From a virus, in the UHGV virus genome UHGV-0155659: a stretch of DNA of 14,522 nt; one strand, written 5' to 3'. The notes below the pieces were generated by a model, which ran no database searches, had not been told where the DNA came from, and saw nothing but the letters and a program-made list of their open reading frames with translations. Numbering within the stretch: the first letter of the stretch is position 1; the number at the start of each line of letters is the position of its first letter. A program made the translations under genes and the position numbers. Shown here one piece after another: positions 128-14,522 of the stretch.

Positions 128-645
128 GCAAGATTGATTATCAAAAGCTTCGTGAAATCGCTGAAAAAACAAAAATTGCTGGTGAAGCACCTGTAATGCC
201 TTTCGATCAGCGAATTAATGCGCTTAACGATTTTATGAAGCACTTTTCGCCAGATATCGCGCTGGCATTGTTGGATGAACGGGAAAGAAACCTGCAATAC
301 ATCAAAAGCCGCGACCAGGAGAACGAGGATATTGCGCTAACGGTAGGGAAGCTGCGCGTTGAGCTGGAAGCCGCAGAGAAGCGCATTGCAGAACTGGAAA
401 GCAACGAAGTCCGTGAAGTCGGAAATCAGTTTCTTGTTGTTCGCCATCCTGGGAAAACTCCTGTCATCAAGCACTGCACTGGTGACCTGGAAGAGTTTCT
501 GCGGAAGTTAATCGAACAAGACCCGTTAGTAACTATCGGCATCATTACGCATCGCTATTACGGGATTGGCGGTCAATGGGTTCAGGATGCAGTTGAGTAT
601 CTGCATATGATGTCTGACGCTGGCATTCGCATCAAAGGAGAGTGA
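124..645 (+). CDS. Ead/Ea22-like prophage accessory protein
   Basis: 173-aa ORF with AAGGAGG RBS at 111-117 and GTG start. N-terminus MSKIDYQKLREIAEK... followed by a coiled-coil-like segment resembles, from memory, the Ead/Ea22-like family common in enterobacterial lambdoid prophages. Not verified by search. Confidence 0.7.
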   Translation: MSKIDYQKLREIAEKTKIAGEAPVMPFDQRINALNDFMKHFSPDIALALLDERERNLQYIKSRDQENEDIALTVGKLRVELEAAEKRIAELESNEVREVGNQFLVVRHPGKTPVIKHCTGDLEEFLRKLIEQDPLVTIGIITHRYYGIGGQWVQDAVEYLHMMSDAGIRIKGE

Positions 646-646
646 T

Positions 647-856
647 ATGGCTATCGCTGCAAGTTACACCATGCATCTCTATTGTGACTGCCGCCAGTGT
701 ACGGAAGGTGTATATCCAGTGCCAGACTTCGGTGAGTATATCGGTAGGTCATGGTCTGGTTGTGCAAAAGAGGCCCGTAAAGACGGGTGGCGAATAAGCG
801 CCGACAAAACGCGTGCTTTTGCGCCCGGGCATAAAGTTTTGAGGATTAACAAATGA
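647..856 (+). CDS. small Cys-containing hypothetical protein (69 aa)
   Basis: AAAGGAG RBS at 633-639 and ATG at 647. Stop overlaps the next start (ATGA at 853-856). Contains a CxC...C..C arrangement (YCDCRQCTEG...GC), suggesting possible metal binding. Function unknown. Confidence 0.5.
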   Translation: MAIAASYTMHLYCDCRQCTEGVYPVPDFGEYIGRSWSGCAKEARKDGWRISADKTRAFAPGHKVLRINK

Positions 857-1389
857 CCACTATAACCGATAAGAAACAGTATCCCAGCGAGCAATATCTT
901 AATGAGCTGATCACCAACATAGAGTTTGCTGCAAGGGCACCAGTTGAAGTCGTGAGAGCGATGGCAGCAGAGCTACAGAAGCGGCGCGAAGCTGATAGTG
1001 CAGAACCTGCAAGTAATCATGAAGAGTTGCCGCTTGATTATCTCCAAGGTCAAAAAGATGGTCTTGAATGGGCTGCGCAGCTTGCAGAAGCAAATCACCC
1101 ACAAACTGGCGACTGGCTTTACGATGACCCGCTGGAGCTGGCTAAAGCTATCAGAAAAGGTCCTGACATGCCCGAATTCGATGGACCAACTCCGGTAACT
1201 CCGGATGGTTGGATAAGCTGTAGTGAGCGAATGCCGGATAATAATCACGACGTACTTTTCTTCGATGTGTGGGGTTATATCCGGATGGGCTGGTTCAGTG
1301 CGGACGATCGTTCGTGGTTTACGTCGGATGATGGGTGCCGCATGGAGGTAACCCACTGGATGCCGCTACCAGAACCGCCCCAGGGGTGA
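853..1389 (+). CDS. DUF551-type prophage protein
   Basis: 178-aa ORF with GAGGA RBS at 841-845. The C-terminal segment WISCSERMPDNNHDVLFFD...VTHWMPLPEPP matches my recollection of the DUF551 signature found in enterobacterial prophage early regions. Confidence 0.75.
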   Translation: MTTITDKKQYPSEQYLNELITNIEFAARAPVEVVRAMAAELQKRREADSAEPASNHEELPLDYLQGQKDGLEWAAQLAEANHPQTGDWLYDDPLELAKAIRKGPDMPEFDGPTPVTPDGWISCSERMPDNNHDVLFFDVWGYIRMGWFSADDRSWFTSDDGCRMEVTHWMPLPEPPQG

Positions 1390-1455: not shown

Positions 1456-1698
1456 ATGTTCTCTCTGATTCAACGTGGTCAGATATACACCGATAGCGCC
1501 GGCTATCCAGTAAAAATCATTCGTAGTACTGATCACTCAGTGTTCTTCAAGAGGATGGATGGCTATCCTGGAAGGGTGTGCATCAGAAAATTCAATAATT
1601 TATTCGAACACATTGATCACAGAGAATATCACCAGATCCTGGCTGAAACAGAACAGGAGAACCATCTGAAAAAATTACGTGCCATGCAAAGGAGATAA
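1456..1698 (+). CDS. small hypothetical phage protein (80 aa)
   Basis: ORF preceded by an AT-rich intergenic region (1390-1455) and a GGGGA RBS-like element. No recognisable catalytic motif. Confidence 0.55.
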   Translation: MFSLIQRGQIYTDSAGYPVKIIRSTDHSVFFKRMDGYPGRVCIRKFNNLFEHIDHREYHQILAETEQENHLKKLRAMQRR

Positions 1699-1733
1699 AC
1701 CGGTAAAGGTGTTCGCGATAAAGGTAAATATTG

Positions 1734-2072
1734 ATGGCTAAATCAGCAGCAGAGCGCAAAGCCGCTCAGAGAGCCAGACAAGCTGCATCTGGTGTGCGTA
1801 AGCTGGAAATTGTGCTTGATGCTCAGGAAATTGAAATGCTGGAGCGTAACTGTGCCACGCGTCGCCCCGGGCGTGCGCCTTACGAATTTGGTGAGTATAT
1901 AGCGTTACTGATCCGCCAGGATGATGCACGCGTGCGCGGGCGTATAAAATCGATCAGCAGAAAACGTTGCGGTAAGTGCGGCGGGAGAGTTCCAGTTAAT
2001 TCATGCCCGTGTAATGGTGACTCGCAATGCTGGGTGACTAAAGGCTGGCATGAAACGAAATTAATAGTGTGA
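1734..2072 (+). CDS. basic, Cys-rich small protein; candidate DNA-binding regulator
   Basis: ATG at 1734 (the ORF track starts at TTG 1731). Lys/Arg-rich N-terminus (ERKAAQRARQAASGVRK) and a C-terminal Cys cluster (CGKCGG...CPCNGDSQC) resembling a zinc ribbon. It is the last gene before the terminator and late operon. The regulator role is inference only. Confidence 0.55.
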   Translation: MAKSAAERKAAQRARQAASGVRKLEIVLDAQEIEMLERNCATRRPGRAPYEFGEYIALLIRQDDARVRGRIKSISRKRCGKCGGRVPVNSCPCNGDSQCWVTKGWHETKLIV

Positions 2073-2080
2073 CATGTCAC
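2069..2080. promoter_or_regulatory. 12-bp perfect palindrome GTGACATGTCAC (candidate operator or protein-binding site)
   Basis: Read directly from the sequence. It overlaps the stop codon of the 1734-2072 gene at the start of the 118-bp intergenic region upstream of the terminase operon. Confidence 0.3.
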
Positions 2081-2121
2081 GAGTAGATTATGCATGATGA
2101 ATTTGATGGGTTTTGAATACT

Positions 2122-2147
2122 GCCGCCAACTATGGCGGCTTTATTTT
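2122..2147 (+). terminator. rho-independent terminator upstream of the late operon
   Basis: GC-rich hairpin GCCGCCA / ACTA loop / TGGCGGC followed directly by TTTATTTT. Lies between the regulator-like gene and the small terminase start. Confidence 0.6.
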
Positions 2148-2154
2148 GCATGGT

Positions 2155-2183
2155 ACTATTACCACAACGGTAACTATTACCAC
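2155..2183 (+). repeat. two direct copies of ACTATTACCAC spaced 18 bp apart, just upstream of terS
   Basis: Exact 11-bp direct repeat at 2155-2165 and 2173-2183. It sits between the terminator and the terS start codon and could be a protein-binding site (late activator or terminase recognition). Function is speculative. Confidence 0.3.
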
Positions 2184-2190
2184 GGTGGTT

Positions 2191-2787
2191 ATGATGCCTG
2201 CTGAACCTAAAACCTATAAACGCAAATCAACGCAATTTAAGCCACTAACAGCAATGCAGGAGGCTTATTGCCAGTCATACATCAAAACGCCTGAAAACCA
2301 GACTCAGGCAGCGATTAACGCAGGATTCTCCCCAAATACAGCGGCAGTTAAAGCCAGTGTCATGATGCGCGATGAACGCATTCAAAAACGGATTGCCGAG
2401 CTGATGGAGGAGCGCAACAAACGAATGCGCGTCAGTGCCGATTACGTTCTTATGCGCCTGGTGGAGATCGACCAGATGGATGTGATCGACATCCTCAACG
2501 ACGATGGGAGCCTTAAGCCAATCCGCGAGTGGCCGAAAATCTGGCGCACTACGCTTAGTGGCTTTGATCTGTCATCGACCATCATGAACATGAACGAGGA
2601 TTCGATAGAGACAATCCTCAAAAAAATTAAATGGCCTGACAAGGTGAAGAACCTTGAGCTGATTGGTAAGCATGTTGATGTCAACGCGTTCAAAGAACGT
2701 CTGGATGTTAATGTGAATGTGACAATTGCTGATCGCATAGCAGCAGCCAGGAAGCGACTCAAAGAACGTCAGGATGGTAATCAGTGA
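2191..2787 (+). CDS. terS: terminase small subunit (Terminase_2/HTH type)
   Basis: N-terminal segment TAMQEAYCQSYIKTPENQTQAAINAGFSPNTAAVKASVMMRDERIQKRIAEL is typical of the HTH-containing small terminase family. It sits immediately upstream of the large terminase with overlapping stop/start (GTGA). Start moved to ATG 2191 because the TTG-2113 ORF would include the terminator hairpin. Confidence 0.8.
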   Translation: MMPAEPKTYKRKSTQFKPLTAMQEAYCQSYIKTPENQTQAAINAGFSPNTAAVKASVMMRDERIQKRIAELMEERNKRMRVSADYVLMRLVEIDQMDVIDILNDDGSLKPIREWPKIWRTTLSGFDLSSTIMNMNEDSIETILKKIKWPDKVKNLELIGKHVDVNAFKERLDVNVNVTIADRIAAARKRLKERQDGNQ

Positions 2788-5246
2788 CAGATACAGCGTT
2801 ATCTCCTGAAGAGCAGTTGATCGAGGATATTGCAGGGTTCACTCACGATCCGCTTGGCTATGCCCTCTATGCGTTCCCGTGGGGGGAAGAGGGGACTGAA
2901 CTGGCACATGCCACCGGCCCACGTCAGTGGCAGGCTGATGCGTTCCGAGAGATACGTGATCACCTGCAGAATCCAGAGACGCGCTATCAGCCGCTTATGC
3001 TGGCACGCGCTTCTGGTCACGGTATTGGTAAATCCGCATTCATCTCAATGCTGATCAACTGGGGCATGTCCACTTGCGAGGATTGTAAGGTCGTGGTGAC
3101 CGCCAACACCGACAACCAGCTACGAACGAAGACCTGGCCGGAAATTATCAAGTGGTCGAACCTTGCTATCACGAAAGACTGGTTTGCCTGTACCGCTACC
3201 GCGATGTACAGCAATGATCCTGGGCACGACAAGCGGTGGCGAGCTGACGCAATCCCCTGGTCTGAGCACAACACTGAGGCATTCGCCGGACTACACAACG
3301 AGCGCAAACGCATCATCGTGGTATTCGATGAAGCGTCGAACATTGCGGATCTGGTGTGGGAAGTTGCTGAGGGTGCGCTTACGGACGAAGACACTGAGAT
3401 TATCTGGGTGGCGTTCGGAAACCCTACTCGTAACACCGGGCGTTTCCGCGAATGTTTCCGCAAATATAAACACCGCTGGAAAACTGCGCAGATTGACAGC
3501 CGGACGGTGGAAGGCACTAACAAACAGCAGTTGCAGAAATGGGTTGATGACTACGGGGAAGATAGCGACTTCGTTAAAATCCGTGTGCGCGGCATATTCC
3601 CTGATGCATCTGAATTGCAGTTTATCCCTACCGGTCTTACTGATGAGGCAATGAAACGGGTGGTAACCGCTGCGCAGGTGGCGCATGCTCCGGTGATAAT
3701 CGGTGTTGACCCGGCATATTCAGGCGTTGATGACGCGGTGATATACCTGCGGCAGGGGCTACACAGTAAGGTGCTGTGGACTGGCAACAAGACTACCGAC
3801 GATCTGATTATGGCGAAGCGTATCGCTGACTTTGAAGACCAGTATCAGGCTGACGCAGTGTTCATCGACTTCGGTTACGGAACCGGTTTGAAGTCAATCG
3901 GTGATGGCTGGGGACGTACATGGCAACTTGTTCCGTTCGGCGGTGCGTCCACTGACCCGCAGATGCTCAACAAGCGTGGGGAGATGTTCAACTCATGCAA
4001 GACATGGCTGAGGCTGGGCGGGATGCTGGATGACCAGGAAACAGCGGACGACCTGTCGGCGGCAGAGTATAAAGTTCGAGTGGACGGTAAAATCGTTATC
4101 GAACCGAAGGAAGATATCAAGGAGCGGCTTGGGCGTTCTCCTGGTAAAGGCGATGCGCTACTGCTGACGTTTGCTTTCCCTGTGTCAAAGCGTCTGCGAA
4201 TTCCCGGGTACCCGAACATTGACCGCGATACATCGAAGCTGGATAGCAAGAACAAGCCATTCAAATCGGTTTATTACGAGGTTGGTGGCGATAACGACAA
4301 GTTGTTGCGTGAGTCCGGATTCGATGAGTTTCCAATTATGGCTCCGCGCTGGGAAGTTAACGGCGAAGATGTTTATGGATCATCATGCCCGGGTATGCTG
4401 GCGCTTGGACCTGTTAAGGCATTGCAGCTTCTCCAGAAGCGCAAGTCGCAGTTGATTGATAAAGCCACCAATCCGCCGATGGTTGCTCCTACTTCCCTCA
4501 AGAATCAGCGCGCCTCCCTTCTTCCTGGCGACATCACGTATATCGATCAGATTACTGGTCAGGATGGCTTCAGGCCTGCTTATCTGGTTAACCCCAGTAC
4601 AGCAGATTTGGTGGCAGATATTCAGGACACTCGTCAAATCATTAACAGCGCCTACTTTGTCGATCTGTTCATGATGTTGCAGAACATCAATACCCGCTCG
4701 ATGCCTGTTGAAGCGGTGATCGAAATGAAAGAAGAAAAACTTCTGATGTTGGGGCCGGTTCTGGAGCGTCTGAACGACGAATGTCTTAATCCTCTCATTG
4801 ACCGTGCTTTCTCGATGATGGTGCGTAAAAACATGCTGCCTCCACCGCCAGATGTGATGGAAGGTATGCCACTGAAGGTCGAATACATTTCCGTCATGGC
4901 TCAGGCACGGAAGTCTATCGGCCTGTCCAGTCTGGCGTCTACGGTCAACTTCATTGGTCAACTTGCGCAAGCGAAACCAGAAGCTCTCGACAAACTCAAC
5001 GTTGATCAGGCGATCGATGCATTCGCTGATATGTCCGGAGTGTCTCCAACCGTCATTGTTCCGCAGGAACAGGTTGAGCATGCTCGCCAGCAACGGGCAC
5101 AGCAACAACAGCAGCAACAAATGATGGCGATGGGGATGGCGGCGGCACAGGGTGCCAAGACGCTAAGCGAAGCTAAAACTTCGGATCCGAGTGTTTTGTC
5201 TGCTATGGCGAATGCAGTTAGTGGTCAGGGTGGGCAATCACAATGA
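2784..5246 (+). CDS. large terminase (ATPase + nuclease) fused in frame to a T7 gp8-like portal C-terminal region
   Basis: The N-terminal ~470 aa carry a Walker A (ASGHGIGKS), a Walker B (IIVVFDEAS) and RNaseH-like nuclease motifs (VIIGVDPAYSGVDD; GKGDALLLTFAF), resembling T7 gp19-type TerL. The C-terminal ~350 aa align by eye with the C-terminal two-thirds of the T7 gp8 portal, including the Gln/Met-rich tail QQQQQQQMMAMGMAAAQGA. No stop codon separates the two parts. AGGATGG RBS precedes the GTG start. Confidence 0.8.
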   Translation: MTDTALSPEEQLIEDIAGFTHDPLGYALYAFPWGEEGTELAHATGPRQWQADAFREIRDHLQNPETRYQPLMLARASGHGIGKSAFISMLINWGMSTCEDCKVVVTANTDNQLRTKTWPEIIKWSNLAITKDWFACTATAMYSNDPGHDKRWRADAIPWSEHNTEAFAGLHNERKRIIVVFDEASNIADLVWEVAEGALTDEDTEIIWVAFGNPTRNTGRFRECFRKYKHRWKTAQIDSRTVEGTNKQQLQKWVDDYGEDSDFVKIRVRGIFPDASELQFIPTGLTDEAMKRVVTAAQVAHAPVIIGVDPAYSGVDDAVIYLRQGLHSKVLWTGNKTTDDLIMAKRIADFEDQYQADAVFIDFGYGTGLKSIGDGWGRTWQLVPFGGASTDPQMLNKRGEMFNSCKTWLRLGGMLDDQETADDLSAAEYKVRVDGKIVIEPKEDIKERLGRSPGKGDALLLTFAFPVSKRLRIPGYPNIDRDTSKLDSKNKPFKSVYYEVGGDNDKLLRESGFDEFPIMAPRWEVNGEDVYGSSCPGMLALGPVKALQLLQKRKSQLIDKATNPPMVAPTSLKNQRASLLPGDITYIDQITGQDGFRPAYLVNPSTADLVADIQDTRQIINSAYFVDLFMMLQNINTRSMPVEAVIEMKEEKLLMLGPVLERLNDECLNPLIDRAFSMMVRKNMLPPPPDVMEGMPLKVEYISVMAQARKSIGLSSLASTVNFIGQLAQAKPEALDKLNVDQAIDAFADMSGVSPTVIVPQEQVEHARQQRAQQQQQQQMMAMGMAAAQGAKTLSEAKTSDPSVLSAMANAVSGQGGQSQ

Positions 5247-5539
5247 CAGATTACGAAGACGATCAACTGAAAGAAGAAAACGCCAGTAAGCAACGTGACA
5301 TGGCACAGCGTGAAATTGATGACATTCGCTTTGTCATGAGCAGTGAACAGGGGCGTCGCGTTGTCTGGTCTGTGCTGGAGAAAGGCCGGGTGTTTTCCGC
5401 TATCTCACCGATGGACGCTATGGCAATGGCATTTAATGAGGGGCAACGCAATCTGGCGCTGGAACTGTTTCAGCGCGTTATGGCGCATTGCCCTGAACAG
5501 TATTTGAAGATGGCCAAAGAGGCCAGTGAACAGGAGTGA
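5243..5539 (+). CDS. small acidic protein between portal and scaffold (unknown function, probable head-assembly role)
   Basis: 98-aa ORF coupled on both sides (ATGA overlap at 5243-5246; stop 5537-5539 three bases before the scaffold ATG). No recognisable motif. Confidence 0.55.
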   Translation: MTDYEDDQLKEENASKQRDMAQREIDDIRFVMSSEQGRRVVWSVLEKGRVFSAISPMDAMAMAFNEGQRNLALELFQRVMAHCPEQYLKMAKEASEQE

Positions 5540-5541
5540 TC

Positions 5542-6237
5542 ATGAATTTATTTGAGCGTTTGCTGTATCGCCGTCTTTGCAATGAGCAACCAGTCGATGG
5601 TGGAGCAGCTCCGGCTGCGTCAGAACCGTCAGCGCCTGCAGGTGATACCCCTGCTCCAGTTGGTGATCCATCACAACAGGAAGGTGATAAGCCACAACCT
5701 GTTGCTGATGGCGATAAACCTGCTGATGACAAAAAGCCTGAAAACGATAAGCAGGATGAAAAAAAGGGCGGCGATAAACCAGAGGGTGCGCCTGAGAAGT
5801 ACGAGTTTCAGGCTGCCGAAGGCGTAGATCTGGATACAGAAGCGTTGAAGGAATTCGAGCCGGTGGCGCGAGAACTTAACCTGACCAACGAGCAAGCGCA
5901 AAAGCTGGTTGATGCTTATCCGAAGATTCTGGCAGGTGTTCAGCAGCGCCAGGCAGAAGCCTGGCAGAAAACAACCGAGCAGTGGGCTGCGGATGTAAAA
6001 GCTGACAAAGAAATCGGTGGCGACAAGTTGATTTCTAACCTTAGCGTCGCACAGCGTGCGCTTGACCAGTTCGGGACACCTGAACTCAAAGAATATCTGA
6101 ACACCACCGGGCTGGGTAATCACCCTGATCTGGTCAAAACGTTCGTGAAAATCGGAAAGGCGATGTCTGAAGATGGCATGGTCACCGGTGGTAATGAAGG
6201 CCAGCGTAGTGCGGCCGAAGTGCTCTATGGCAAATAA
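5542..6237 (+). CDS. capsid scaffolding protein (putative)
   Basis: AGGAG RBS at 5532-5536 and ATG at 5542. Has a low-complexity acidic Pro/Ala/Asp/Lys-rich N-terminal half and lies between the portal and the major capsid gene, as the T7 gp9 scaffold does. Call is by position and composition. Confidence 0.6.
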   Translation: MNLFERLLYRRLCNEQPVDGGAAPAASEPSAPAGDTPAPVGDPSQQEGDKPQPVADGDKPADDKKPENDKQDEKKGGDKPEGAPEKYEFQAAEGVDLDTEALKEFEPVARELNLTNEQAQKLVDAYPKILAGVQQRQAEAWQKTTEQWAADVKADKEIGGDKLISNLSVAQRALDQFGTPELKEYLNTTGLGNHPDLVKTFVKIGKAMSEDGMVTGGNEGQRSAAEVLYGK

Positions 6238-6245
6238 GAGAGGAA

Positions 6246-7238
6246 ATGACAATGGCTGTTAAAGGCTTAACTGCGCTAACGCTGGCTGACTGGGGTAAGC
6301 GCGTCGATCCAAACGGGAAAGTCGATAAGATTATCGAGCTTCTCGGTCAAACTAACCCGATCCTTCAGGATATGCCTTTTGTCGAAGGGAACCTTCCTAC
6401 CGGACACCGAACCACCATTCGTTCTGGTTTACCTTCAGCTACCTGGCGTTTGCTGAACTATGGCGTACAGCCAAGCAAATCAACCACAGTGCAGGTAACC
6501 GATTCCGTTGGCATGCTGGAAACCTATGCTGAAGTCGATAAGTCACTGGCTGATCTGAACGGCAACACCGCCGAATTCCGCCTGTCTGAAGACCGCGCAT
6601 TTATTGAAGCGATGAATCAGCAGATGGCGCAGACGCTGTTTTATGGTGATTCCAGCGTTAACCCTCAGCAGTTTATGGGACTGTCCTCCCGCTATTCCAG
6701 CCTGTCTGCGGGTAATGCTCAGAACATCATTGATGCTGGTGGCACGGGTACAGATAACACCTCAATCTGGTTAGTGGTGTGGGGCGAAAACACCGTGCAT
6801 GGCATCTTCCCGAAAGGGCAGAAGGCTGGCATCCAGATGGAAGATAAAGGCCAGGTGACACTGGAAGATGCTAATGGCGGCAAGTACGAAGGCTATCGCA
6901 CCCATTACAAATGGGATAACGGACTTGCTCTGCGTGACTGGCGTTATGTTGTTCGCATTGCAAACATCGATGTCAGCAATCTTTCAGAACCTTCCTCTGC
7001 CGCAAATATTGCGAAGTTGATGGTTAAAGCACTGCATCGAATTCCAAACCGTGGCATGGGTCGCCCGGTGTTCTACATGAACCGCACTGTAGGCCAGGCT
7101 CTTGATCTGCAATCTCTGGAGAAAACATCTCTGGCGATCAGCGTAAAAGAGACAGAAGGCGAGTGGTGGACGTCATTCCGTGGTGTACCAATCCGTGAAA
7201 CTGATGCGCTTCTGGAAACAGAAGCCCGCGTGGTGTAA
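6246..7238 (+). CDS. major capsid protein
   Basis: 330-aa ORF directly after the scaffold gene, followed by a stem-loop. Size and position fit an HK97-fold major capsid protein in a portal-scaffold-capsid arrangement. The start could alternatively be ATG 6252. Confidence 0.75.
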   Translation: MTMAVKGLTALTLADWGKRVDPNGKVDKIIELLGQTNPILQDMPFVEGNLPTGHRTTIRSGLPSATWRLLNYGVQPSKSTTVQVTDSVGMLETYAEVDKSLADLNGNTAEFRLSEDRAFIEAMNQQMAQTLFYGDSSVNPQQFMGLSSRYSSLSAGNAQNIIDAGGTGTDNTSIWLVVWGENTVHGIFPKGQKAGIQMEDKGQVTLEDANGGKYEGYRTHYKWDNGLALRDWRYVVRIANIDVSNLSEPSSAANIAKLMVKALHRIPNRGMGRPVFYMNRTVGQALDLQSLEKTSLAISVKETEGEWWTSFRGVPIRETDALLETEARVV

Positions 7239-7254
7239 CGCCTGTTATTAACCT

Positions 7255-7274
7255 GTGGGTCGTAACAGACCCAC
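7255..7274 (+). other. stem-loop between the major capsid and next gene (possible RNA processing/stability element)
   Basis: 7-bp stem GTGGGTC / GACCCAC with a 6-nt loop, not followed by a U-tract, so not a classical intrinsic terminator. Confidence 0.3.
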
Positions 7275-7289
7275 TAATGGAGAAAGAAG

Positions 7290-7727
7290 ATGATCACCGA
7301 CAAACTGTTGATGTTCTCCGAAGCTCAGGCGGTTACGAATACCGCGGCTTCTACTGACGTAATCGATCTCGGTCCAATTGACGGAAAACGTCGTGATATC
7401 GGCGTGGGTTACCCGCTTGAGTTTTGGGCGCTGGTTAACACAGCCGCCGCAGCAAGCGGTGATGCAACTGTAAACATCCAGTTGCAGACGAGTGAGGATA
7501 ACAGCTCATGGACCACTATTTATGATAGTGGTGCACTGGCAAAGACCGCCCTGACAGCAGGTAAACGAGTTGTTTCTGCAAAGGTGCCTGCCGGTGTTCA
7601 GCGATATCTGCGTGTTAACTACTCCGTCGCAACTGGCCCGCTAACGGCTGGCGAATTCACTGCTGGTATCAGTCTTGATGTTGATGCCAATACGCCGTAT
7701 CCGATCCGCTCAAAAGTAACTGGTTAA
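7290..7727 (+). CDS. small beta-rich head-associated protein, possibly a capsid decoration/cement protein
   Basis: 145-aa ORF with GGAG RBS at 7279-7282. The N-terminus LLMFSEAQAVTNTAASTDVIDLG resembles, from memory, cement/decoration proteins of the Bbp16-like type. Located right after the capsid gene. Assignment tentative. Confidence 0.5.
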   Translation: MITDKLLMFSEAQAVTNTAASTDVIDLGPIDGKRRDIGVGYPLEFWALVNTAAAASGDATVNIQLQTSEDNSSWTTIYDSGALAKTALTAGKRVVSAKVPAGVQRYLRVNYSVATGPLTAGEFTAGISLDVDANTPYPIRSKVTG

Positions 7728-7737
7728 GGTGATATCG

Positions 7738-8073
7738 ATGTCAGGTGAGAAACCAAGATACCGCGTTCTGCGCCTCTCTCATATCCATAACACACTGTGG
7801 CCGGAGGGGGCAGAAATCGAATACGAAGGTGAGCCTGGTAGCGCACTGGAACCTGTTAACGATGCAGCCAGACAGGCAAAAGCAAAAGTTGCAGGAAAGG
7901 TGTCAATGGCAGCAACCAGCACCAAAATCATCAACGATGTGTCAGATGATGGTGAACTGGATAAGCTCCGTGAAGAGTACGAATTGCTCTTTAACGAGAA
8001 GCCACACCATAACGCCAAAGCTGAAACGCTCCGCGAGAAGATCGCAGATAAGCGTAAAGAACTGGGCGTGTAA
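7738..8073 (+). CDS. hypothetical structural-module protein (111 aa)
   Basis: ATG at 7738 preceded by AAGGTGA; the ORF track starts at GTG 7729. Followed by an intrinsic terminator. Function unknown. Confidence 0.6.
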   Translation: MSGEKPRYRVLRLSHIHNTLWPEGAEIEYEGEPGSALEPVNDAARQAKAKVAGKVSMAATSTKIINDVSDDGELDKLREEYELLFNEKPHHNAKAETLREKIADKRKELGV

Positions 8074-8089
8074 GCCTCGCGGATCAGAC

Positions 8090-8111
8090 AAGGGGCTTCG
8101 GCCCCTTTATT
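8090..8111 (+). terminator. rho-independent terminator after the capsid gene cluster
   Basis: Hairpin AGGGGC / TTCG tetraloop / GCCCCT followed by TTATT. Its position after the head genes is analogous to the T7 T-phi terminator after gene 10. Confidence 0.6.
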
Positions 8112-8123
8112 GCAGGAGTGTAT

Positions 8124-8447
8124 ATGGAACTCGTAAACCTCAAAACCGGCACTGACAGCTACCAGGATGAGAGCGGAGAAACCAGAACTCGCGATGAATA
8201 CCCGTGGGGGCTGTGCATCACTCTTAATAACGACACATTGAATAAGCTGAAGGCGCAACCTCAGGGCGTCGGAACAGAAGTGATGATAACTGCAAAGGCT
8301 GTTATTCGAGGCCTGTCTGCCAGAGAAACTGACGATGGTGTTAATCGCAGCGCCGATCTGCAGATCACTGATATGGCGATCGCTCCTGTTTCCGGGGATG
8401 TAGAAAAATCAGCGGCTGAAACCCTGTACGGCAATGGGGGTGAGTAA
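8124..8447 (+). CDS. hypothetical virion-module protein (107 aa)
   Basis: AGGAG RBS at 8114-8118 and ATG at 8124. Stop overlaps the start of the next gene (TAATG). Function unknown. Confidence 0.6.
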   Translation: MELVNLKTGTDSYQDESGETRTRDEYPWGLCITLNNDTLNKLKAQPQGVGTEVMITAKAVIRGLSARETDDGVNRSADLQITDMAIAPVSGDVEKSAAETLYGNGGE

Positions 8448-9052
8448 TGGCCTCTGTAGTAGAGATCTGCAATCGTGCGCTGTCCAATATTGGCAACAGC
8501 CGCAGCATTAACAGCCTGACGGAAGCCAGCAAGGAAGCGGGGGAATGTTCGCTGCACTTTGAGGCCTGCCGTGATGCTGTGCTTTCTGATTTTGACTGGA
8601 ACTTTGCTACCAAACGCGTGGCGCTTGCAAATACGAGCAATCCACCGCCTGACTGGGAATATGCGTATCAGTACCCGTCCGATTGTCTGCGCATTACTGA
8701 AATTATGCTTCCTGGTGTACGCAATCCAACAGCAGCAATGCGCGTTCAGTACGAAGTTGGTGCAGACACCAACGGAACAGGAAAGTTGATCTACACAGAC
8801 CAGCCGCAGGCATGGCTCAAGTATGTCTCTCGCGTTTCAGATGTGAACATGTTTGATGCCATTTTTATGGAGGCGTTGGCCTGGCGTCTTGCGGCAGCTA
8901 TTAACATGGCGCTGACTGGGAATGCAGACCTCGGTACGTTTTCCCTCAATATGTACAATCGCGTGATTCTTAGTGCTGGCTCGCATAGCCAGAATGAATC
9001 ACAGGAACCACAGCCACCGGTTGACGAGTTTACCATTGCGAGGTTGTCCTGA
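8447..9052 (+). CDS. tail tubular protein A-like (T7 gp11-like adaptor)
   Basis: 201 aa, similar in size to T7 gp11, with N-terminal pattern ALSNIG...INSL...W.F and gene order directly before the gp12-like gene. Similarity judged by eye, not by alignment. Confidence 0.65.
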   Translation: MASVVEICNRALSNIGNSRSINSLTEASKEAGECSLHFEACRDAVLSDFDWNFATKRVALANTSNPPPDWEYAYQYPSDCLRITEIMLPGVRNPTAAMRVQYEVGADTNGTGKLIYTDQPQAWLKYVSRVSDVNMFDAIFMEALAWRLAAAINMALTGNADLGTFSLNMYNRVILSAGSHSQNESQEPQPPVDEFTIARLS

Positions 9053-11523
9053 TGGCTATCAGTTGGATCCAGCCCAGTTTTGCCGGTGGTGAGATTGGAC
9101 CGTCGTTGTACGGTCGTATCGACATGGCGAAGTACCAGGTGGCATTGCGCAAGTGCGATAACTTTATCGTGCGGCAGTATGGCGGCGTTGAGAATCGACC
9201 TGGTACGCGTTTTGTCGGTGCCGCCAAATACCCAAATCGGAAATGCCGCCTGATCCCGTTCCAGTTCTCGACGGTTCAGACTTATGCTCTGGAGTTCGGA
9301 CACCAGTACATGCGCGTTATCAAAGATGGTGCGTTGGTGCTGAACAGCAGCAATGTTATTTATGAAATTGCCACGCCATATACTGAAGCCGATCTGTTCC
9401 GAATTAAATTCACGCAAAGCGCAGACGTGCTTACGCTGGTTCATCCGGCATACCCGCCGAAAGAGTTGCGCCGCTATGCGCATGACAACTGGCAACTGGT
9501 TGATGTGGTAACGAAGAACGGGCCATTTGAAGATATCAATATTGACGAGTCAGTGACGGTTTATGCCAGCGCCAGCACCGGGACAATTACGTTAACGGCA
9601 AGCGCCTCTATTTTTGGCGCGGAGCAGGTAGGCAAATTGTTCTATCTGGAACAGCCTGCAGTGGATTCTGTGCCGGTATGGGAAACCAGTAAGAGTACGT
9701 CGATTGGCGATATTCGCCGTGCAGACAGTAACTACTATCGCGCCGTTACAGCAGGCAAAACAGGCACTTTGCGCCCTTCGCATACAGAAGGCACATCATG
9801 GGATGGCTGGGGCGGATCCGGTGATGATGATACCGGCATTGAGTGGGAGTATCTGCACAGTGGTTTTGGCATTGCCCGTATCTCTGCTGCAAATGGAACT
9901 ACTGCAACTGCCGAGGTGATTTCCTATATCCCTTCGCAGGTAGTTGGCGAGGATAATGCCAGCTATAAATGGGCTAAATATGCCTGGAACAGTATTAACG
10001 GTTATCCTGGCACTGTTGTTTATTATCAACAACGTCTTTACTTCGCCGCATCGACTGCGTTCCCTCAGACTATCTGGGCCAGCCGTACTGGGGATTATAA
10101 GGATTTTGGCAAAAGCAATCCTACGCAGGATGACGACAGAATTATCTACACCTATGCCGGGCGTCAGGTTAATGAGATCCGCCACCTGATTGATGTTGGT
10201 TCGCTGGTGGCGCTGACTTCTGGAGGTGAGTACGTCATCACCGGCGACCAGAACAAAGTATTAACCCCATCATCATTTGCATTCAGCTCTCAGGGATCAA
10301 ATGGCTCGAGCAATGTCCCACCAATTGCCGTGGCGAATATTGCTCTGTTCGTCCAGGAGAAAGGCAGTGTTGTCCGTGATCTGGCCTACTCATTCGATGT
10401 TGACGGCTATCAGGGGAACGACCTGACCATCCTTGCCAATCATCTTTTTCAGAAGCACAGCATTGTTGACTGGTGCTTCTCTATTGTCCCTTACTCCAGC
10501 GCCTTCTGCATTCGTGATGACGGTAAATTACTGGTGATGACCTATTTGCGTGATCAGCAGGTTTTTGCATGGGCACCACAATCCAGTACCGGAAAATATG
10601 AAAGCACATGCAGTATCAGCGAAGGCAATGAAGATGCGGTGTATTTCGTCGTTAACCGAACCGTTAACGGGCAAACAGTGAGATACATCGAGCGGCTGTC
10701 CAGCCGTTTATTTACCAGCGATGAAGATGCTTTCTTTGTTGATTCTGGCCTTAGCTATGATGGAAGAAATACGTCTGACAGAACGATGACCATCACTGGT
10801 GGTTCTGGCGAATGGGATTATCGCGCGGAATATACAATCAGTGTTTCTGGTGGTGCGTACTTCACCAGTAGTGATGTCGGCGCGCAACTACAGTTCCCTT
10901 ATGCCGGAACTGATCCTGATACTGGCGATGAAGTGTCAAAAGAATTACGTTGCGACATTATTTCTGTAACCAGCAATACCGCTGTAGTGGTTCGTGCCAA
11001 CAGGAACGTCCCGCCATCCCTCAGGAATGCGGCCACCACGAACTGGCAGATGGCGCGCCGGACATTTGGAGGCCTGTCTCATCTTGAAGGCCAGACCGTA
11101 AACATTCTCTCTGATGCGAACGTGGAACCACAGAAAGTGGTTTCCGGAGGTGCCGTCACACTGGAATCTCCGGGGGCTGTAGTGCACATCGGCCTGCCAA
11201 TAACTGCTGAATTCGAAACACTGGATATCAACATTAACGGACAGGAAACGCTGCTGGACAAAAAACAGGTGATACCCTCCGTTACTCTGGTTGTGAATGC
11301 CAGTCGCGGCATCTGGGCGACTACGCCCGGCGGTAAATGGTACGAATATCCACAGCGTGAATTCGAGTTCTACGATGATCCTGTTGATGATGCTACCGGA
11401 AAAGTAGAAGTGAAACTGGACAGTAACTGGGGCAAAAACGGACGTGTAAAAATCCGTCAGCTTGACCCGTTGCCGCTGTCTGTTCTTGCCGTTATTCCTC
11501 GCCTTACTGTTGGGGGATTCTGA
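9052..11523 (+). CDS. tail tubular protein B-like (T7 gp12-like nozzle)
   Basis: 823 aa, close to the size of T7 gp12. N-terminal SFAGGEIGPSLYGRIDMAKYQ...VENRPGTRFV resembles the gp12 N-terminus NLKGGISQQPDILRYPDQ...LQKRPPLVFL. Flanked by gp11-like and gp13/gp14-like genes. Confidence 0.7.
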   Translation: MAISWIQPSFAGGEIGPSLYGRIDMAKYQVALRKCDNFIVRQYGGVENRPGTRFVGAAKYPNRKCRLIPFQFSTVQTYALEFGHQYMRVIKDGALVLNSSNVIYEIATPYTEADLFRIKFTQSADVLTLVHPAYPPKELRRYAHDNWQLVDVVTKNGPFEDINIDESVTVYASASTGTITLTASASIFGAEQVGKLFYLEQPAVDSVPVWETSKSTSIGDIRRADSNYYRAVTAGKTGTLRPSHTEGTSWDGWGGSGDDDTGIEWEYLHSGFGIARISAANGTTATAEVISYIPSQVVGEDNASYKWAKYAWNSINGYPGTVVYYQQRLYFAASTAFPQTIWASRTGDYKDFGKSNPTQDDDRIIYTYAGRQVNEIRHLIDVGSLVALTSGGEYVITGDQNKVLTPSSFAFSSQGSNGSSNVPPIAVANIALFVQEKGSVVRDLAYSFDVDGYQGNDLTILANHLFQKHSIVDWCFSIVPYSSAFCIRDDGKLLVMTYLRDQQVFAWAPQSSTGKYESTCSISEGNEDAVYFVVNRTVNGQTVRYIERLSSRLFTSDEDAFFVDSGLSYDGRNTSDRTMTITGGSGEWDYRAEYTISVSGGAYFTSSDVGAQLQFPYAGTDPDTGDEVSKELRCDIISVTSNTAVVVRANRNVPPSLRNAATTNWQMARRTFGGLSHLEGQTVNILSDANVEPQKVVSGGAVTLESPGAVVHIGLPITAEFETLDININGQETLLDKKQVIPSVTLVVNASRGIWATTPGGKWYEYPQREFEFYDDPVDDATGKVEVKLDSNWGKNGRVKIRQLDPLPLSVLAVIPRLTVGGF

Positions 11524-11987
11524 TGATCGATGTTCGAATTATTCCCGCTACCGAAGAGCATCTTCAGATGATTTTGCCGGATGTTCGTCAGGCTGATATT
11601 GACGAACTGTATGCGGTATCGCTGATGACTACCGAAGATGCGCTGCGTGTTGGTCTGCGCACTGCGACTATGGCCTGGTCAGGATTTGCGAACGGAGAAC
11701 TGGTAACCATGTTTGGCGTATCTCCGGCGTCAATGATCGGTGGCAATGGTACGCCCTGGCTGGTCGGAACCAGCCGTATCGAAAAATATCAGAAGACATT
11801 TCTTCGCCACTGCCGCCCTGTATTGCAGCAGATGCTGGCAGTTTATCCGCGCCTGGAAAACTATGTCGACGAGCGAAACCATGTTGCCAAAGCATGGCTG
11901 CACTGGCTTGGATTCAGGCTTGAAGAAGCCGCGCCTTATGGTGCTCTTGGTCTTAATTTCCACAGATTTCACATGGAGAGAAAATAA
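11523..11987 (+). CDS. internal virion protein A-like (gp13-like) small protein
   Basis: 154-aa ORF coupled on both sides (TGATG at 11521-11525; TAATG at 11985-11989). Assignment is by synteny between the gp12-like and gp14-like genes. Confidence 0.55.
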   Translation: MIDVRIIPATEEHLQMILPDVRQADIDELYAVSLMTTEDALRVGLRTATMAWSGFANGELVTMFGVSPASMIGGNGTPWLVGTSRIEKYQKTFLRHCRPVLQQMLAVYPRLENYVDERNHVAKAWLHWLGFRLEEAAPYGALGLNFHRFHMERK

Positions 11988-12532
11988 TGTGCGATCCGGT
12001 TATTGCTGGTGGCGCAATGCTCGCCATGAGTGGCATTCAGGCATACACCCAGTACCAACAGGGAAAGTATGCCTCGAAGGTTGCAGAAGCGAACGCAGAT
12101 ATAGCCACAGCTCAGGCAAATGATGCAATAAACAGAGGTAACGCTGAAGCTGAGCAACGGCGCAGAGAGACCCGACAGCGGCTTGGTACACAGGCGGCGA
12201 CAATGGGGGCTACCGGCGCTGATTTATCTACAGGTAACGCGCTGGATATATTTGGCGACACTGCCCAGTTTGGCGCTCTTGATTCTCTGACGACGGTGAA
12301 TAACGCGCAACGCGAGGCTTACGGTTATCAGGTTCAGGCTGCCAACTATAAAGCAGAAGCCAGTTCAGCCCGTAAACAGGGGAATGTGGGAGCAGCAACA
12401 ACATTGCTCACTGCGCCTCTGAAGGCATACGGTGCGTACCAGATGTTTGGTGGGACGTGGAGTCCGTTTACTCAAAGCACCCCTGCGCCAATCTGGGCAG
12501 CAGCAGGAACCAGATTACCCGGAGGATTATAA
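11987..12532 (+). CDS. internal virion protein B-like (T7 gp14-like)
   Basis: 181 aa beginning MCDPVIAGGAMLAMSGIQA, compared with T7 gp14 MCWAAAIPIAISGAQA as I recall it. Ala/Gln-rich composition and synteny support the call. Confidence 0.65.
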   Translation: MCDPVIAGGAMLAMSGIQAYTQYQQGKYASKVAEANADIATAQANDAINRGNAEAEQRRRETRQRLGTQAATMGATGADLSTGNALDIFGDTAQFGALDSLTTVNNAQREAYGYQVQAANYKAEASSARKQGNVGAATTLLTAPLKAYGAYQMFGGTWSPFTQSTPAPIWAAAGTRLPGGL

Positions 12533-14522
12533 TGCCAGTCGTACCAACAGTATCCGGCCGTCAGGTTCAGAGCCGTGGAGTTCAGTCAGCAGGCTTGCAG
12601 ACGTTTTCTCAGCCAGGTATTGGTGATGCTTTTGTTCGGGCAGGGACAGAGGCAATTGATGTTTTTGGTCAGGCAAAACAGCGTGCCAATATCGCTCTGG
12701 CTCAGGAGGCATCTCTTAACCTCAGTCAGATAAGCAGTGATCTGCTGAATAATCCTGAAACAGGATTGCTTAACCTGAAAGGGAAAAATGCTATTGGAAA
12801 AGGTCAGGAGTATACGCAGCAGTTTGATGCTCAGGCCGAACAACTGGCTATGTCGCTGCCGGATGAACAGGCTCGTAATGCTTTCATGCAGCAGGCGCAG
12901 CAGCAGCGCATTCAGTTCACTACGCAGGCAGGGCGGCACGAGATAGGGCAAATAAATGCCTACGAAGAAGGCCAGTTTCAGGCTACGCTGCTGAACAATG
13001 GTAAAAATGCCGCAGCATTGTATGGCGACAACGCCGCATATGTATTGGCTAATAAGCAAACTTTCCAGCAAATTGAGGATTACGGCATTGCACATGGCTG
13101 GAGTGACGAGCAAATCCAGGCCAAGAAAATCGAGTTTAAAGAGAAGGTTGCTGATGCCGCATTGTCCCAGTGGTCGGCAAACAATGCGACCGCATTCATC
13201 CAAAGTAATGGCGAGTTAAGTGATACTGCTGCTGGAGCTCGCCGTGCTGTAGCAGATAGTGACTCTTCCGAGCGTGCCCGTGGCATACGCAACAATAACC
13301 CAGGAAATCTCGAATACAGCAAAACTAATCCGTGGGTAGGCCAGACCGGTGATGATGGTCGATTTGCTAAATTCGAAACACCTGAACACGGGATTCGTGC
13401 ATTAGGGCGAAACCTGATGTCGTATCAGAGGCAGGGTATTGATACCGTCAGCGAGATAATTAATCGCTGGGCACCGCCTACTGATAAAAATGATACTATG
13501 TCGTATATCAAAGCAGTGTGCGAACAACTTGGCGTTTCTGCTGATGATCCTCTCGATGCATCTAATCCTGATACCCTGAAGGCGCTTTGTGCAGCCATTA
13601 TCCATCATGAGAACGGTAGCCAGCCATACAGTGATCAGCAGTTAACTGCTGGTGTCAGTGCAGCACTTGGTTTATCAACAATTCCAACCAACACCAAACG
13701 CTATACCGGTAATGCAGCATTCGATGCGGCATCTCCTGAGGCGCAGGCAAGTTTTATGCGACAGGCGGATCAACTGCGTCGGCAGCAGCAGGCTGAATAT
13801 AAAACGATGATTGACAGCCAGGTTCGCGATGCGACAGCTGCATATATGCGTGGCGTTGAATTTCCTAACCCACCTGGTGAGGATGATTTTATTGCAGCTT
13901 ATGGAGTCAGAGAAGGAAACCTGCGATATACCGAGTTTAAGAATACGCAGATCGCCGGACAGTATATAGGCTCTTTCCGCAACATGCCGACAAGCAGCAT
14001 TACAGCATATGTTGAGCAATTACGCCCGGATACTGGTGATACAGGGGAGGGCTATGCGGCACGCGCAGCTCTTTATGACAACGTTGTTTCGGCTGCAAAT
14101 CAGGTGATAAAGCAGCGGCAGTCGGATCCTGTGCAGTTCTCTCTTGCCTCCGGACAGGCAAAGCCTATCGACATGAGCAATAAGGATAACTTTGGACAGA
14201 GCGTTGCCTTGCGTGCCGCTCAGGTCAGTGACCTTGCTAAGTCATATGGCACTCCACTGACGTTCTTTTCCAAAGACGAGGCCAATCAGATCGGTGTTTT
14301 CTTTCGTGATGCTCCAGTTTCCCAACAGGCAGCATATCTCGATACCATCAGGCAGAGCACTGGTGGTGGGCAGGTGTATATGTCAGCACTACAGCAGATC
14401 AGTACCAACGCTCCATCTGCTGCCGTTGCAAAAACCTACCTGAATATCAGTGTGAAACAGAACGCTGCTGCACTGACACAGGCTAAGAACGTTACAATCA
14501 CCGCATTCGACGGACCGAACCC
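12532..14522 (+). CDS. large internal virion/ejection protein (gp15/gp16-like), 3'-truncated by the window end
   Basis: Open frame from ATG 12532 (GGAGGA RBS at 12521-12526, TAATG overlap) to the window edge, giving more than 663 codons with no stop. Gln/Ala-rich with a conserved-looking block RGIRNNNPGNLEY...GIDTVSEIINRWAP. Absent from the ORF track because it has no stop in the window. Confidence 0.75.
   Translation, partial: MPVVPTVSGRQVQSRGVQSAGLQTFSQPGIGDAFVRAGTEAIDVFGQAKQRANIALAQEASLNLSQISSDLLNNPETGLLNLKGKNAIGKGQEYTQQFDAQAEQLAMSLPDEQARNAFMQQAQQQRIQFTTQAGRHEIGQINAYEEGQFQATLLNNGKNAAALYGDNAAYVLANKQTFQQIEDYGIAHGWSDEQIQAKKIEFKEKVADAALSQWSANNATAFIQSNGELSDTAAGARRAVADSDSSERARGIRNNNPGNLEYSKTNPWVGQTGDDGRFAKFETPEHGIRALGRNLMSYQRQGIDTVSEIINRWAPPTDKNDTMSYIKAVCEQLGVSADDPLDASNPDTLKALCAAIIHHENGSQPYSDQQLTAGVSAALGLSTIPTNTKRYTGNAAFDAASPEAQASFMRQADQLRRQQQAEYKTMIDSQVRDATAAYMRGVEFPNPPGEDDFIAAYGVREGNLRYTEFKNTQIAGQYIGSFRNMPTSSITAYVEQLRPDTGDTGEGYAARAALYDNVVSAANQVIKQRQSDPVQFSLASGQAKPIDMSNKDNFGQSVALRAAQVSDLAKSYGTPLTFFSKDEANQIGVFFRDAPVSQQAAYLDTIRQSTGGGQVYMSALQQISTNAPSAAVAKTYLNISVKQNAAALTQAKNVTITAFDGPN

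Follow-up and report, generated by a model that had tools for sequence, protein, structure and literature searches.

A phiV10-like late operon with two atypical junctions in a metagenome-derived copy of an epsilon15-type temperate podovirus

Background

Escherichia phage phiV10 (NC_007804) carries integrase, repressor, O-acetyltransferase, and lambda-P/DnaT-type replication genes; the final gene of its genome, p55, which precedes terS, bears the annotation of a transcriptional regulator. Its close kin are vB_EcoP_ZX5, phiv142-3, PAS61, the O157 typing phages 9 and 10, and TL-2011b; ZX5 is short-tailed, was found to be temperate by experiment, and integrates at the guaA 3' end (PMC9782041). An intact prophage of E. 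coli MLI121, located between guaA and yfgI, shows the same gene order from the integrase to the spanin. The type of the group is Salmonella phage epsilon15 (cryo-EM capsid structure, 3J40), and further structures come from Bordetella phage BPP-1 and marine phage Carin-1 (3J4U, 8CJZ, 8CK0, and 8CK1; a literature search returned no paper matching 8CK1 or 8CJZ). A mosaic relationship to T7 was published by Hardies et al. in 2016 with HMM-HMM analysis, under the name 'transient tail homology group' (PMC4819975). According to the same work, the terminase and capsid of epsilon15 are grouped with siphovirus lineages, the gp16 homologue is epsilon15 gp17 (phiV10 p20, outside the stretch analyzed here), and a gp15 homologue is undetectable; the partial kinship with the tail and ejection apparatus of T7 had thus already been described (PMC4819975).

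Here, a stretch of 14,522 nucleotides of the virus genome UHGV-0155659 (hereafter, the window) was analyzed. It represents 14.5 kb of one copy of such an element and comes from a short metagenome scaffold (15.5 kb). A first-pass annotation, made from the sequence alone, had described a T7-like virion module next to lambdoid-type genes. Family assignments were made with Pfam, PHROG, and NCBIfam profiles and with PDB matches; note that NCBIfam named the capsid protein alone.

Identity and lifestyle of the element

The window almost certainly comes from a phiV10-like phage, i.e., an epsilon15-type temperate podovirus of E. coli belonging to the genus Uetakevirus, and covers the end of its early-right region together with the initial two thirds of its late (virion) operon. 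Aligned with phiV10, the DNA was 98.0% identical along 10,221 bp and 97.0% identical along 2,145 bp, in continuous alignments rather than in short patches, and the protein identity to phiV10 p01-p18 was 96-100% with no gaps; all the genes but two were full length. Eight phage records covered at least 80% of the window, all of them from the Uetakevirus group (including phiV10, O157 typing phages 9 and 10, HEMP4, phiv142-3, PAS61, and ZX5), and a prophage with at least 80% of the window was present in 288 of 5,426 complete E. coli genomes. A single operon runs on the plus strand from about position 2191 to the window end, and its order (terS, terL, and portal through adaptor, nozzle, and internal proteins) is collinear with phiV10 p01-p18 and with the MLI121 prophage, apart from the deletion described below. 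With phiV10 and its kin the window has in common the gene set and order, namely the p55-like regulator and terS through p18. It differs from phiV10 in that the part upstream of 1731 is another early-region mosaic (E. coli EC19 matches positions 108-2200 at 100% identity) and in that p18 is left at about aa 632, with Bacteroides nqrA thereafter.

Epsilon15 has the same module architecture (gp7 capsid, gp10 staple, gp11/gp12 tail hub, and gp13/gp14 small internal proteins), but it is far more diverged from the window than phiV10 (approximately 77% DNA identity over 53% of the window) and differs in its host and in its tailspike and immunity genes. BPP-1 and Carin-1, which have distant hosts, are alike only at the protein level: the capsid (9.5e-129 and 1.2e-87), portal (3.8e-98), adaptor (3.1e-26), and nozzle (1.1e-216) are homologous, and the Bbp16 and Bbp19 families are common to them and the window. 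As for the traits of Uetakevirus, the long-stretch nucleotide identity to recognised members is present in this partial genome, as are the epsilon15-type capsid, the gp10 staple, and the Bbp16-type cement (PF20911, PF21628, PF21190, and NF045672); the complete, separate terL and portal genes of a viable member are absent, and one 820-aa ORF is found instead.

In the early-right part, five genes lie on the plus strand: an Ead/Ea22-like early-region gene (124..645, 173 aa; PF13935, 9.6e-20), which occupies the equal position in two intact prophages, a small hypothetical gene (647..856, 69 aa; phrog_926, 5.9e-36), a DUF551 protein gene (853..1389, 178 aa; PF04448, 5.6e-16), a DUF4222 protein gene (1456..1698, 80 aa; PF13973, 2.6e-15), and a gene for a phiV10 p55-like putative transcriptional, possibly late, regulator with a Cys-rich C-terminus (1731..2072, 113 aa; phrog_536 'transcriptional regulator', 2.4e-54). 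The first-pass annotation had regarded the Ead/Ea22-like and DUF551 genes as lambdoid accessory neighbours. The genes themselves are real (Pfam), but they are not a juxtaposed foreign lambdoid block; rather, the Ead/Ea22, DUF551, and DUF4222 genes are the usual upstream neighbours in intact prophages of the phiV10 type and make up the regular early-right region of such genomes. The following stretch on the same strand (2069..2147) is a putative control region with a 12-bp palindrome (GTGACATGTCAC), promoter-like hexamers, and an intrinsic terminator hairpin (GCCGCC-aactat-GGCGGC) followed by a T-run. Neither tRNA genes nor Rfam matches were found in the window; the tRNA-Arg of the relatives is located in the segment deleted from it.

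The lysogeny module (P4-type integrase, repressor, and attP matching the guaA 3' end) is carried by phiV10, MLI121, EC19, and ZX5 and lies outside both the window and the 15.5-kb source contig; that the 14.5 kb show no integrase, repressor, att sites, or tailspike of this particular copy is a point against the reading. A phage single-subunit RNA polymerase, which the first reading had likewise not seen, was not found in the window by profile searches, and none is annotated in the complete phiV10 genome or in the whole MLI121 prophage. Because the relatives carry integrase and repressor genes, use guaA as their integration site, and lack an RNA polymerase gene, and because ZX5 has been shown to be temperate, the earlier suggestion of a probably temperate, mosaic, short-tailed phage rather than a classical lytic T7-type phage is right; the comparison with known temperate podoviruses that had been proposed as a check led to phiV10 itself, at 97-98% identity. 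The element type is ordinary, and its reading as a temperate mosaic podovirus has already been published. Its biological weight is small, as a textbook member of a phage group that has been sequenced, structurally studied, and experimentally found to be temperate.

Two junctions in the metagenome copy

The late operon starts with the terminase small subunit gene, terS (2191..2787, plus strand; PF03592 Terminase_2, 1.4e-29; 100% protein identity to phiV10 p01). As its start, ATG at 2191 or 2194 is plausible; the TTG annotated in phiV10, equivalent to 2113, would span the terminator. The next ORF (2784-5246, plus strand, 820 aa) consists of two parts joined in frame at 4208|4209. The first part (2784..4208) is aa 1-475 of the 491 aa of the terminase large subunit, the C-terminal approximately 16 aa being gone (98.95% protein identity to phiV10 p02; phrog_2, 7.2e-52; the DNA alignment stops at the junction), and the second (4209..5246) is aa 215-559 only of the portal protein (PF12236 (Head-tail_con), profile positions 210-488 of 489, 1.1e-100; 98.6% identity to phiV10 p07 aa 215-559; PDB 8CK0_A, 3.8e-98; cyanophage P-SCSP1u portal, 1.8e-5). 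Compared with phiV10, 2,083 bp are missing (positions ~2146-4219), comprising the terL 3' end, p03, p04, p06, and codons 1-214 of the portal gene. Since this deletion joins terL in frame to the portal, there is no separate portal gene. Thus, terS and terL do stand at the front of the operon as first annotated, and the separate terL and portal genes of that annotation are replaced by the single fusion ORF, in which portal aa 1-214 are absent. The 4208|4209 junction was absent from the 5,426 E. coli genomes, IMG/VR, and the JGI metagenome contigs; the 820-aa fusion protein is on record for two ENA contigs. A restriction-site or cloning origin of the junction (GAATTCCCGGGTACC) was ruled out, both halves being native phiV10 sequence.

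The second junction is at 14429|14430. The likeness to all phage and E. coli relatives ends at 14429, and the last 93 bases of the window (14430..14522, plus strand) are foreign DNA, a fragment of Bacteroides nqrA (Na+-NQR subunit A) in frame with p18. The continuation of nqrA on the source contig matches NQRA_2nd and NQRA_SLBB, with 97% protein identity to Bacteroides faecis/UMGS1954. Therefore, the source metagenome contig is chimeric; given this end, one or more of its junctions must be artificial or in some other way not of phage origin. Because the terL-portal fusion and the nqrA end occur in no known member, this copy is not an intact member of the group; the broken terminase-portal region and the foreign gene fragment are what is distinctive in it. 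Each of the two junctions has been found in a single ENA sample only, BioSample SAMN06111986 with the analysis ERZ28665303, and the sequence shared at 14429|14430 is 'GC' only. A shared k-mer able to explain a mis-assembly was sought at both junctions and was not found. Artefacts could account for both of them, and the deletion could alternatively stem from real prophage decay.

The chances are about even that both junctions arose during library preparation or assembly, e.g., as template-switch or ligation chimeras, and that the real phage in the sample is intact. For E. coli phage DNA joined to a Bacteroides housekeeping gene through 2 shared bp there is no known biological route, and the restriction of each junction to one sample and the shortness of the source scaffold point in the same direction. 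However, chimeric molecules or reads must then exist, because a De Bruijn mis-join requires a shared k-mer and neither junction has one, and a random ligation chimera would seldom rejoin the same phage, in the same strand, just 2 kb further downstream. In a somewhat less probable explanation, a decaying phiV10-like prophage of an E. coli strain in the sample has truly lost 2.1 kb, so that terL and the portal gene were fused, and the Bacteroides junction alone is an assembly or library artefact; the copy would then be unable to make a portal, i.e., would be a defective prophage. The event is local, in direct orientation, and within one genome, which fits prophage decay or polymerase slippage; the remaining genes are all intact; and the lost segment contains the variable moron/tRNA-Arg region between terL and the portal gene. 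The record of the fusion protein on two ENA contigs would also agree with a genuine deletion, although these are possibly two assemblies of one library. Against it, the junction is missing from all the genome and metagenome collections mentioned above and is without microhomology, and the same contig bears a second, plainly non-biological-looking junction to Bacteroides DNA. That the p18-NqrA and TerL-portal in-frame fusions are both real recombinant DNA molecules in the sample, instead of library or assembly chimeras, is very improbable; if true, coliphage DNA would have been joined to a Bacteroides chromosome. The practical lesson is one of caution: the long and plausible-looking ORFs made by the two junctions, TerL-portal (820 aa) and p18-NqrA (896 aa), have already entered the protein databases, where they could pass for novel multidomain proteins.

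Virion genes and kinship with T7

All the genes downstream of the fusion ORF are on the plus strand. The head genes are those for a Bbp19-like small head-region protein (5243..5539, 98 aa; PF25181, 2.8e-17), a putative scaffold-like protein (5542..6237; phrog_458, 7.6e-111), the major capsid protein of the epsilon15 gp7 type with the HK97 fold (6252..7238; PF20911, 2.1e-149; NF045672 equivalog, 9e-124; PDB 3J4U of BPP-1, 9.5e-129, and 3J40 of gp7, 2e-85), a Bbp16-family capsid cement protein, so named in RefSeq (7290..7727; PF21190, 2.8e-47), a hypothetical protein like phiV10 p12 and epsilon15 gp9 (7738..8073; 100% identity to phiV10 p12; phrog_590), and an epsilon15 gp10-like capsid staple protein (8124..8447; PF21628, 1.2e-51; RefSeq 'capsid staple protein'). 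The families of the capsid, cement, and staple proteins are those of epsilon15/BPP-1 and not those of T7. The gene first named a scaffold occupies the gp9-equivalent position, but databases name its product a protease or peptidase, it had no Pfam or PDB match, and likeness to T7 gp9 was not detected.

The tail hub is encoded by the adaptor gene, equivalent to T7 gene 11 (8447..9052; PDB 8CK1_E 'Connector Protein', 3.1e-26), and the nozzle gene, equivalent to T7 gene 12 (9052..11523; PDB 8CK1_A 'Tail Nozzle', 1.1e-216). These are followed by genes for internal virion protein A in the gp13 position (11523..11987, 154 aa; phrog_308 'internal virion protein', 1.8e-62), internal virion protein B of the T7 gp14 family (11987..12532; PF24072 T7_gp14, 1.9e-7, 31.6 bits with a cutoff of 27; RefSeq 'virion core protein, T7 gp14 family'), and a phiV10 p18-like large internal or ejection protein that has a muralytic domain and of which about aa 1-632 of 837 are present (12532..14429; 96.4% identity to phiV10 p18 aa 1-638). 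The last ORF of the window matches phiV10 p18 up to 14429 only; it also matches phrog_992 and phrog_7182 'tail injection transglycosylase', and aa 249-398 of the full-length phiV10 p18 match PDB 9VVP_L (5.5e-38) and 7Q47 'Endolysin' (2.8e-17). The PHROG labels among the window proteins include 'tail protein' and 'internal virion protein', and a Pfam scan in which E values as high as 10 were admitted was empty for the adaptor, the nozzle, p18, p19, and p20. The profile matches obtained for the early-right and late-operon proteins exceed chance by a wide margin.

When every window protein was compared directly with T7 gp8-gp19 by BLASTP and phmmer, nothing significant was obtained, and the kinship was therefore tested by profile and fold. 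The T7 gp8-family portal is present, as the C-terminal half matched by PF12236 and by the portal of P-SCSP1u, a T7-like cyanophage. For the adaptor family, hhalign against the T7 gp11 sequence was negative (prob 0.07%), and hence its kinship is shown by structure comparison alone: with Foldseek, the AF2 model (pLDDT 84) matched Carin-1 (1e-16) and, over the full length, T7 gp11 (7BOX_M, E 1.8e-6, prob 1.0, TM 0.57). The nozzle family profile aligned with T7 gp12 by hhalign (prob 87%, E 3.9e-6) over 137 columns in the central domain (window aa 291-439 to gp12 aa 326-466), and the terminal domains were not alignable; the profile also matched the cyanophage A4 tubular protein B (4.2e-9) and the PhiM1 nozzle (2.9e-4). 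This profile was built from a 50%-cluster search, as the earlier set of homologues, all with at least 82% identity, was too similar. Internal virion protein A gave E 0.088 and 13.6 bits (cutoff, 25) with PF11090 Phage_T7_Gp13 and E 0.45-0.84 by BLASTP; its gp13 homology has been asserted (PMC4819975). Neither Pfam nor BLASTP nor phmmer connected the p18-like ORF with T7 gp15 or gp16, and its muralytic domain is a functional analogy only; the gp15/16-like label given to it earlier is accordingly dropped. Similarity to the T7-type capsid (gp10), scaffold (gp9), and terminase (gp18/19) was not detected in the window, nor was any T7 likeness of the cement proteins.

Thus, the T7 likeness is remote and partial, being limited to the portal, the adaptor (fold only), the nozzle (central domain), and gp14. 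Of the 'T7-like virion module' first proposed, the portal, adaptor, nozzle, and small internal proteins (gp14 and perhaps gp13) stand at the profile or fold level, and other lineages have supplied the capsid, the decoration proteins, and the terminase; likewise, the profile searches that had been suggested against T7 gp8-gp16 succeeded for the portal, nozzle, and gp14, stayed below the cutoff for gp13, and failed for the capsid, scaffold, and gp15/gp16 and for the adaptor, which matched by fold only. The order of portal, scaffold-position gene, capsid, adaptor, nozzle, and small and then large internal proteins really mirrors that of T7, except for two points that the first reading had overlooked: in this copy only a truncated portal remains, as part of the fusion with terL, and the window ends in Bacteroides DNA. 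In contrast to T7, the window has a capsid of another HK97-fold family with cement and staple proteins added, a terminase of another lineage sited in front and not at the module end, and a muralytic domain in the first large internal protein (in T7, it is at the gp16 N-terminus), and its relatives are temperate without an RNA polymerase gene. An assignment to the classical lytic T7-type phages (Autographiviridae) has practically no likelihood, and the same goes for a P22-like or lambdoid phage bearing a T7-like tail: the portal of the T7 Pfam family, the gp14-family protein, and the syntenic adaptor-nozzle-internal protein order would fit, but the epsilon15/BPP-1-type capsid, cement, and staple and the terminase genes at the front speak against it, and a classical T7-type identity is refuted by the phiV10 match, by the integrase and repressor genes of the complete relatives (98% identity) with no RNA polymerase annotated, and by the absence of pairwise similarity to any T7 structural protein.

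Proposed working of the module

The identity of the element, its genes and their order, and the protein families are results of this analysis; from the homology with epsilon15, BPP-1, Carin-1, and T7, the following roles are proposed for the intact module. TerS and TerL would package the DNA through a dodecameric portal of the T7 family into an HK97-fold capsid of the epsilon15 gp7 type, which would be built on the scaffold-like protein and strengthened by the Bbp16-type cement and the gp10-type staple. The gp11-type adaptor ring and the gp12-type nozzle would form a short tail hub bearing the tailspikes, and the gp13-/gp14-type small and the large internal proteins, one of them wall-degrading, would be ejected and form a channel through the cell envelope. 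Expression probably depends on a late promoter and on read-through of the terminator located just upstream of terS, under the presumed control of the 113-aa regulator encoded immediately before it.

Identity and gene content of the element

Every long ORF in the window is on the plus strand, and together they make up a late operon preceded by an upstream block. This block consists of an Ead/Ea22-like gene (124-645), a small gene (647-856), a DUF551 gene (853-1389), a DUF4222 gene (1456-1698), and a regulator-like gene of 113 aa (1731-2072). The late operon begins with the packaging and head genes, namely terS (Terminase_2), an 820-aa ORF (2784-5246), a Bbp19-like gene, a scaffold-like gene (231-233 aa), the major capsid gene (epsilon15 gp7-type), a cement gene (Bbp16-type), a small gene, and a staple gene (gp10-type); the tail and ejection genes follow, encoding proteins of 201, 823, 154, and 181 aa (the last in the T7_gp14 family) and ending with a long ORF that is open at the window end. 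By homology, the operon belongs to an epsilon15-type podovirus and covers packaging, the head, the tail hub, and the ejectosome; the roles of the individual proteins are putative and taken from solved relatives.

Megablast identified the element as phiV10-like. Eight phage records, including O157 typing phages 9 and 10, HEMP4, phiv142-3, PAS61, ZX5, and phiV10 (NC_007804; Uetakevirus), cover at least 80% of the window at 97-98% identity, and at least 80% of it is present in 288 of 5,426 complete E. coli genomes. Window 2073-4217 aligns continuously to phiV10 1-2145 (97.0% identity) and window 4209-14429 to phiV10 4220-14440 (98.0% identity). The phiV10 proteins p01-p17 were matched gaplessly at 96-100% identity; the exceptions are p02 (terL) and p07 (portal), of which only parts are present, and p03, p04, and p06, which the window lacks. 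The element identity and the family assignments were obtained directly in this analysis.

Among the genes of phiV10 are those for an integrase, a repressor, replication functions of the DnaT and lambda P types, an O-acetyltransferase, and a tailspike; its annotation lists no RNA polymerase gene. In E. coli MLI121, an intact prophage of this kind occupies the site between guaA and yfgI, and for the short-tailed relative vB_EcoP_ZX5, lysogeny at the guaA 3' end was shown experimentally (PMC9782041). The first-pass annotation, which proposed a temperate, short-tailed mosaic, was therefore largely right in its interpretation, but the phage type is ordinary and already described, and the gene list needed correction. 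In the MLI121 prophage, the Ead/Ea22, DUF551, DUF4222, and regulator genes lie immediately upstream of terS in the same order as in the window, and E. coli EC19 carries window 108-2200 as a single piece (100% identity); therefore, the supposed lambdoid accessory genes are not foreign neighbours and constitute the regular early-right region of phages of this type.

Between this region and terS, the interval 2069-2147 of the window contains a perfect palindrome of 12 bp, GTGACATGTCAC, which directly follows the stop codon of the regulator gene (113 aa) and overlaps promoter-like hexamers. Downstream of it is a strong predicted intrinsic terminator (GCCGCC-aactat-GGCGGC with a T-run), approximately 45 bp before the terS ATG; the layout is reminiscent of the lambda Q/PR'/tR' late control. 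Since a gene beginning at the TTG start annotated for terS in phiV10 (corresponding to window 2113) would span the putative terminator, terS probably begins at 2191 or 2194.

Two private junctions

The likeness to every relative ends at 14429. An exact match of the 820-aa protein led to the ENA metagenome scaffold WENC17-2_SAMN06111986_METAG-scaffold_937 (15,472 bp; L002), which is identical to the window across 14,500 shared bases and on which the last phage ORF reads on, with no change of frame, into NqrA (its C-terminal ~265 aa). Window 14430-14522 and scaffold positions 14408-15200 are Bacteroides nqrA DNA, and the NqrA part has 97% protein identity to Bacteroides faecis and a related Bacteroides. 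Only 'GC' (2 bp) is common to both sides of the 14429|14430 join, and the chimeric p18-NqrA ORF (896 aa) is on record in one ENA contig. It is very probable that this junction represents a chimeric molecule or an assembly product.

The second junction (4208|4209) lies within the 820-aa ORF, where terL aa 1-475 continue in the same reading frame into portal aa 215-559, in place of the separate terL and portal genes of the first-pass annotation. Relative to phiV10, 2,083 bp are missing at this point, with no microhomology at the break (~2.15 kb relative to MLI121). The junction was not found in the 5,426 E. coli genomes, IMG/VR contigs, or JGI metagenome contigs, and the fusion protein is on record in two ENA contigs only. 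The deletion may be an artefact like the Bacteroides junction, or it may be real prophage decay; if real, this copy would be without a functional portal and would form no virions on its own. That both junctions are in frame is not informative, because the probability by chance is ~1/18; both are private and should be treated as suspect.

Window 4200-4214 reads GAATTCCCGGGTACC, that is, consecutive EcoRI, SmaI, and KpnI sites. A cloning scar was considered, but each half is native phiV10 sequence, and the sites are therefore apparently coincidental. In intact relatives (MLI121 prophage DNA, L085 19992-21346; EC19 prophage DNA, L086 22151-23724; another relative, L001 2238-3563), the segment between terL and portal is a variable 'moron' slot with a gene on the minus strand, small ORFs, and often tRNA-Arg, all missing from the window.

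Relationship to T7

Pairwise BLASTP and phmmer gave no significant match to T7 gp8-gp19, and the profile and fold comparisons had a mixed outcome. The portal belongs to the T7 Pfam family PF12236 (1.1e-100), with a further match to the portal of P-SCSP1u, a T7-like cyanophage. The 201-aa protein matches the Carin-1 'connector'; its family profile did not match the T7 gp11 sequence, and its AlphaFold model (pLDDT 84) matched T7 gp11 (7BOX_M, E 1.8e-6, TM 0.57) and other adaptors over the full length. The 823-aa protein matches the Carin-1 'Tail Nozzle' (1.1e-216), and the profile of its diverse relatives matches the T7 gp12 central domain (hhalign probability 87%, E 3.9e-6) and the solved nozzles of phages A4 and PhiM1. 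The 181-aa protein is above the Pfam T7_gp14 threshold, and the 154-aa protein has only a sub-threshold match to Phage_T7_Gp13 (E 0.088). For the p18-like last ORF, which carries a muralytic domain, no relation to T7 gp15 or gp16 was detected. The capsid, cement, staple, and Bbp19 proteins are of epsilon15/BPP-1 families, no similarity was found between the terminase and T7 gp18/gp19, and the terminase genes are at the front of the operon, whereas those of T7 are at the end. The proposed T7-like module thus holds at the profile or fold level for the portal, the gp11 and gp12 equivalents, and gp14, but not for the capsid, cement, staple, and terminase. This pattern agrees with Hardies et al. 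2016 (PMC4819975), who described tubular tail proteins A and B and internal virion proteins A, B, and D of the epsilon15 group as distant T7 homologues, detected no homologue of internal virion protein C in the group, and placed its terminase and capsid with siphovirus lineages.

Variation among relatives

The p18-like ejection protein is variable in length (837 aa in phiV10 versus 935 aa in E. coli MLI121, whose gene has ~290 bp extra; window 13236-13274 versus L085 31030-31362), which suggests that the middle of the protein is modular or prone to indels. In the EC19 prophage, no gp10-type staple gene is annotated between the p12-like and adaptor genes (L086 28245-28302), and window 8120-8446 is without a counterpart in the alignment; within the phiV10-like group, the staple gene can therefore apparently be dispensed with or replaced.
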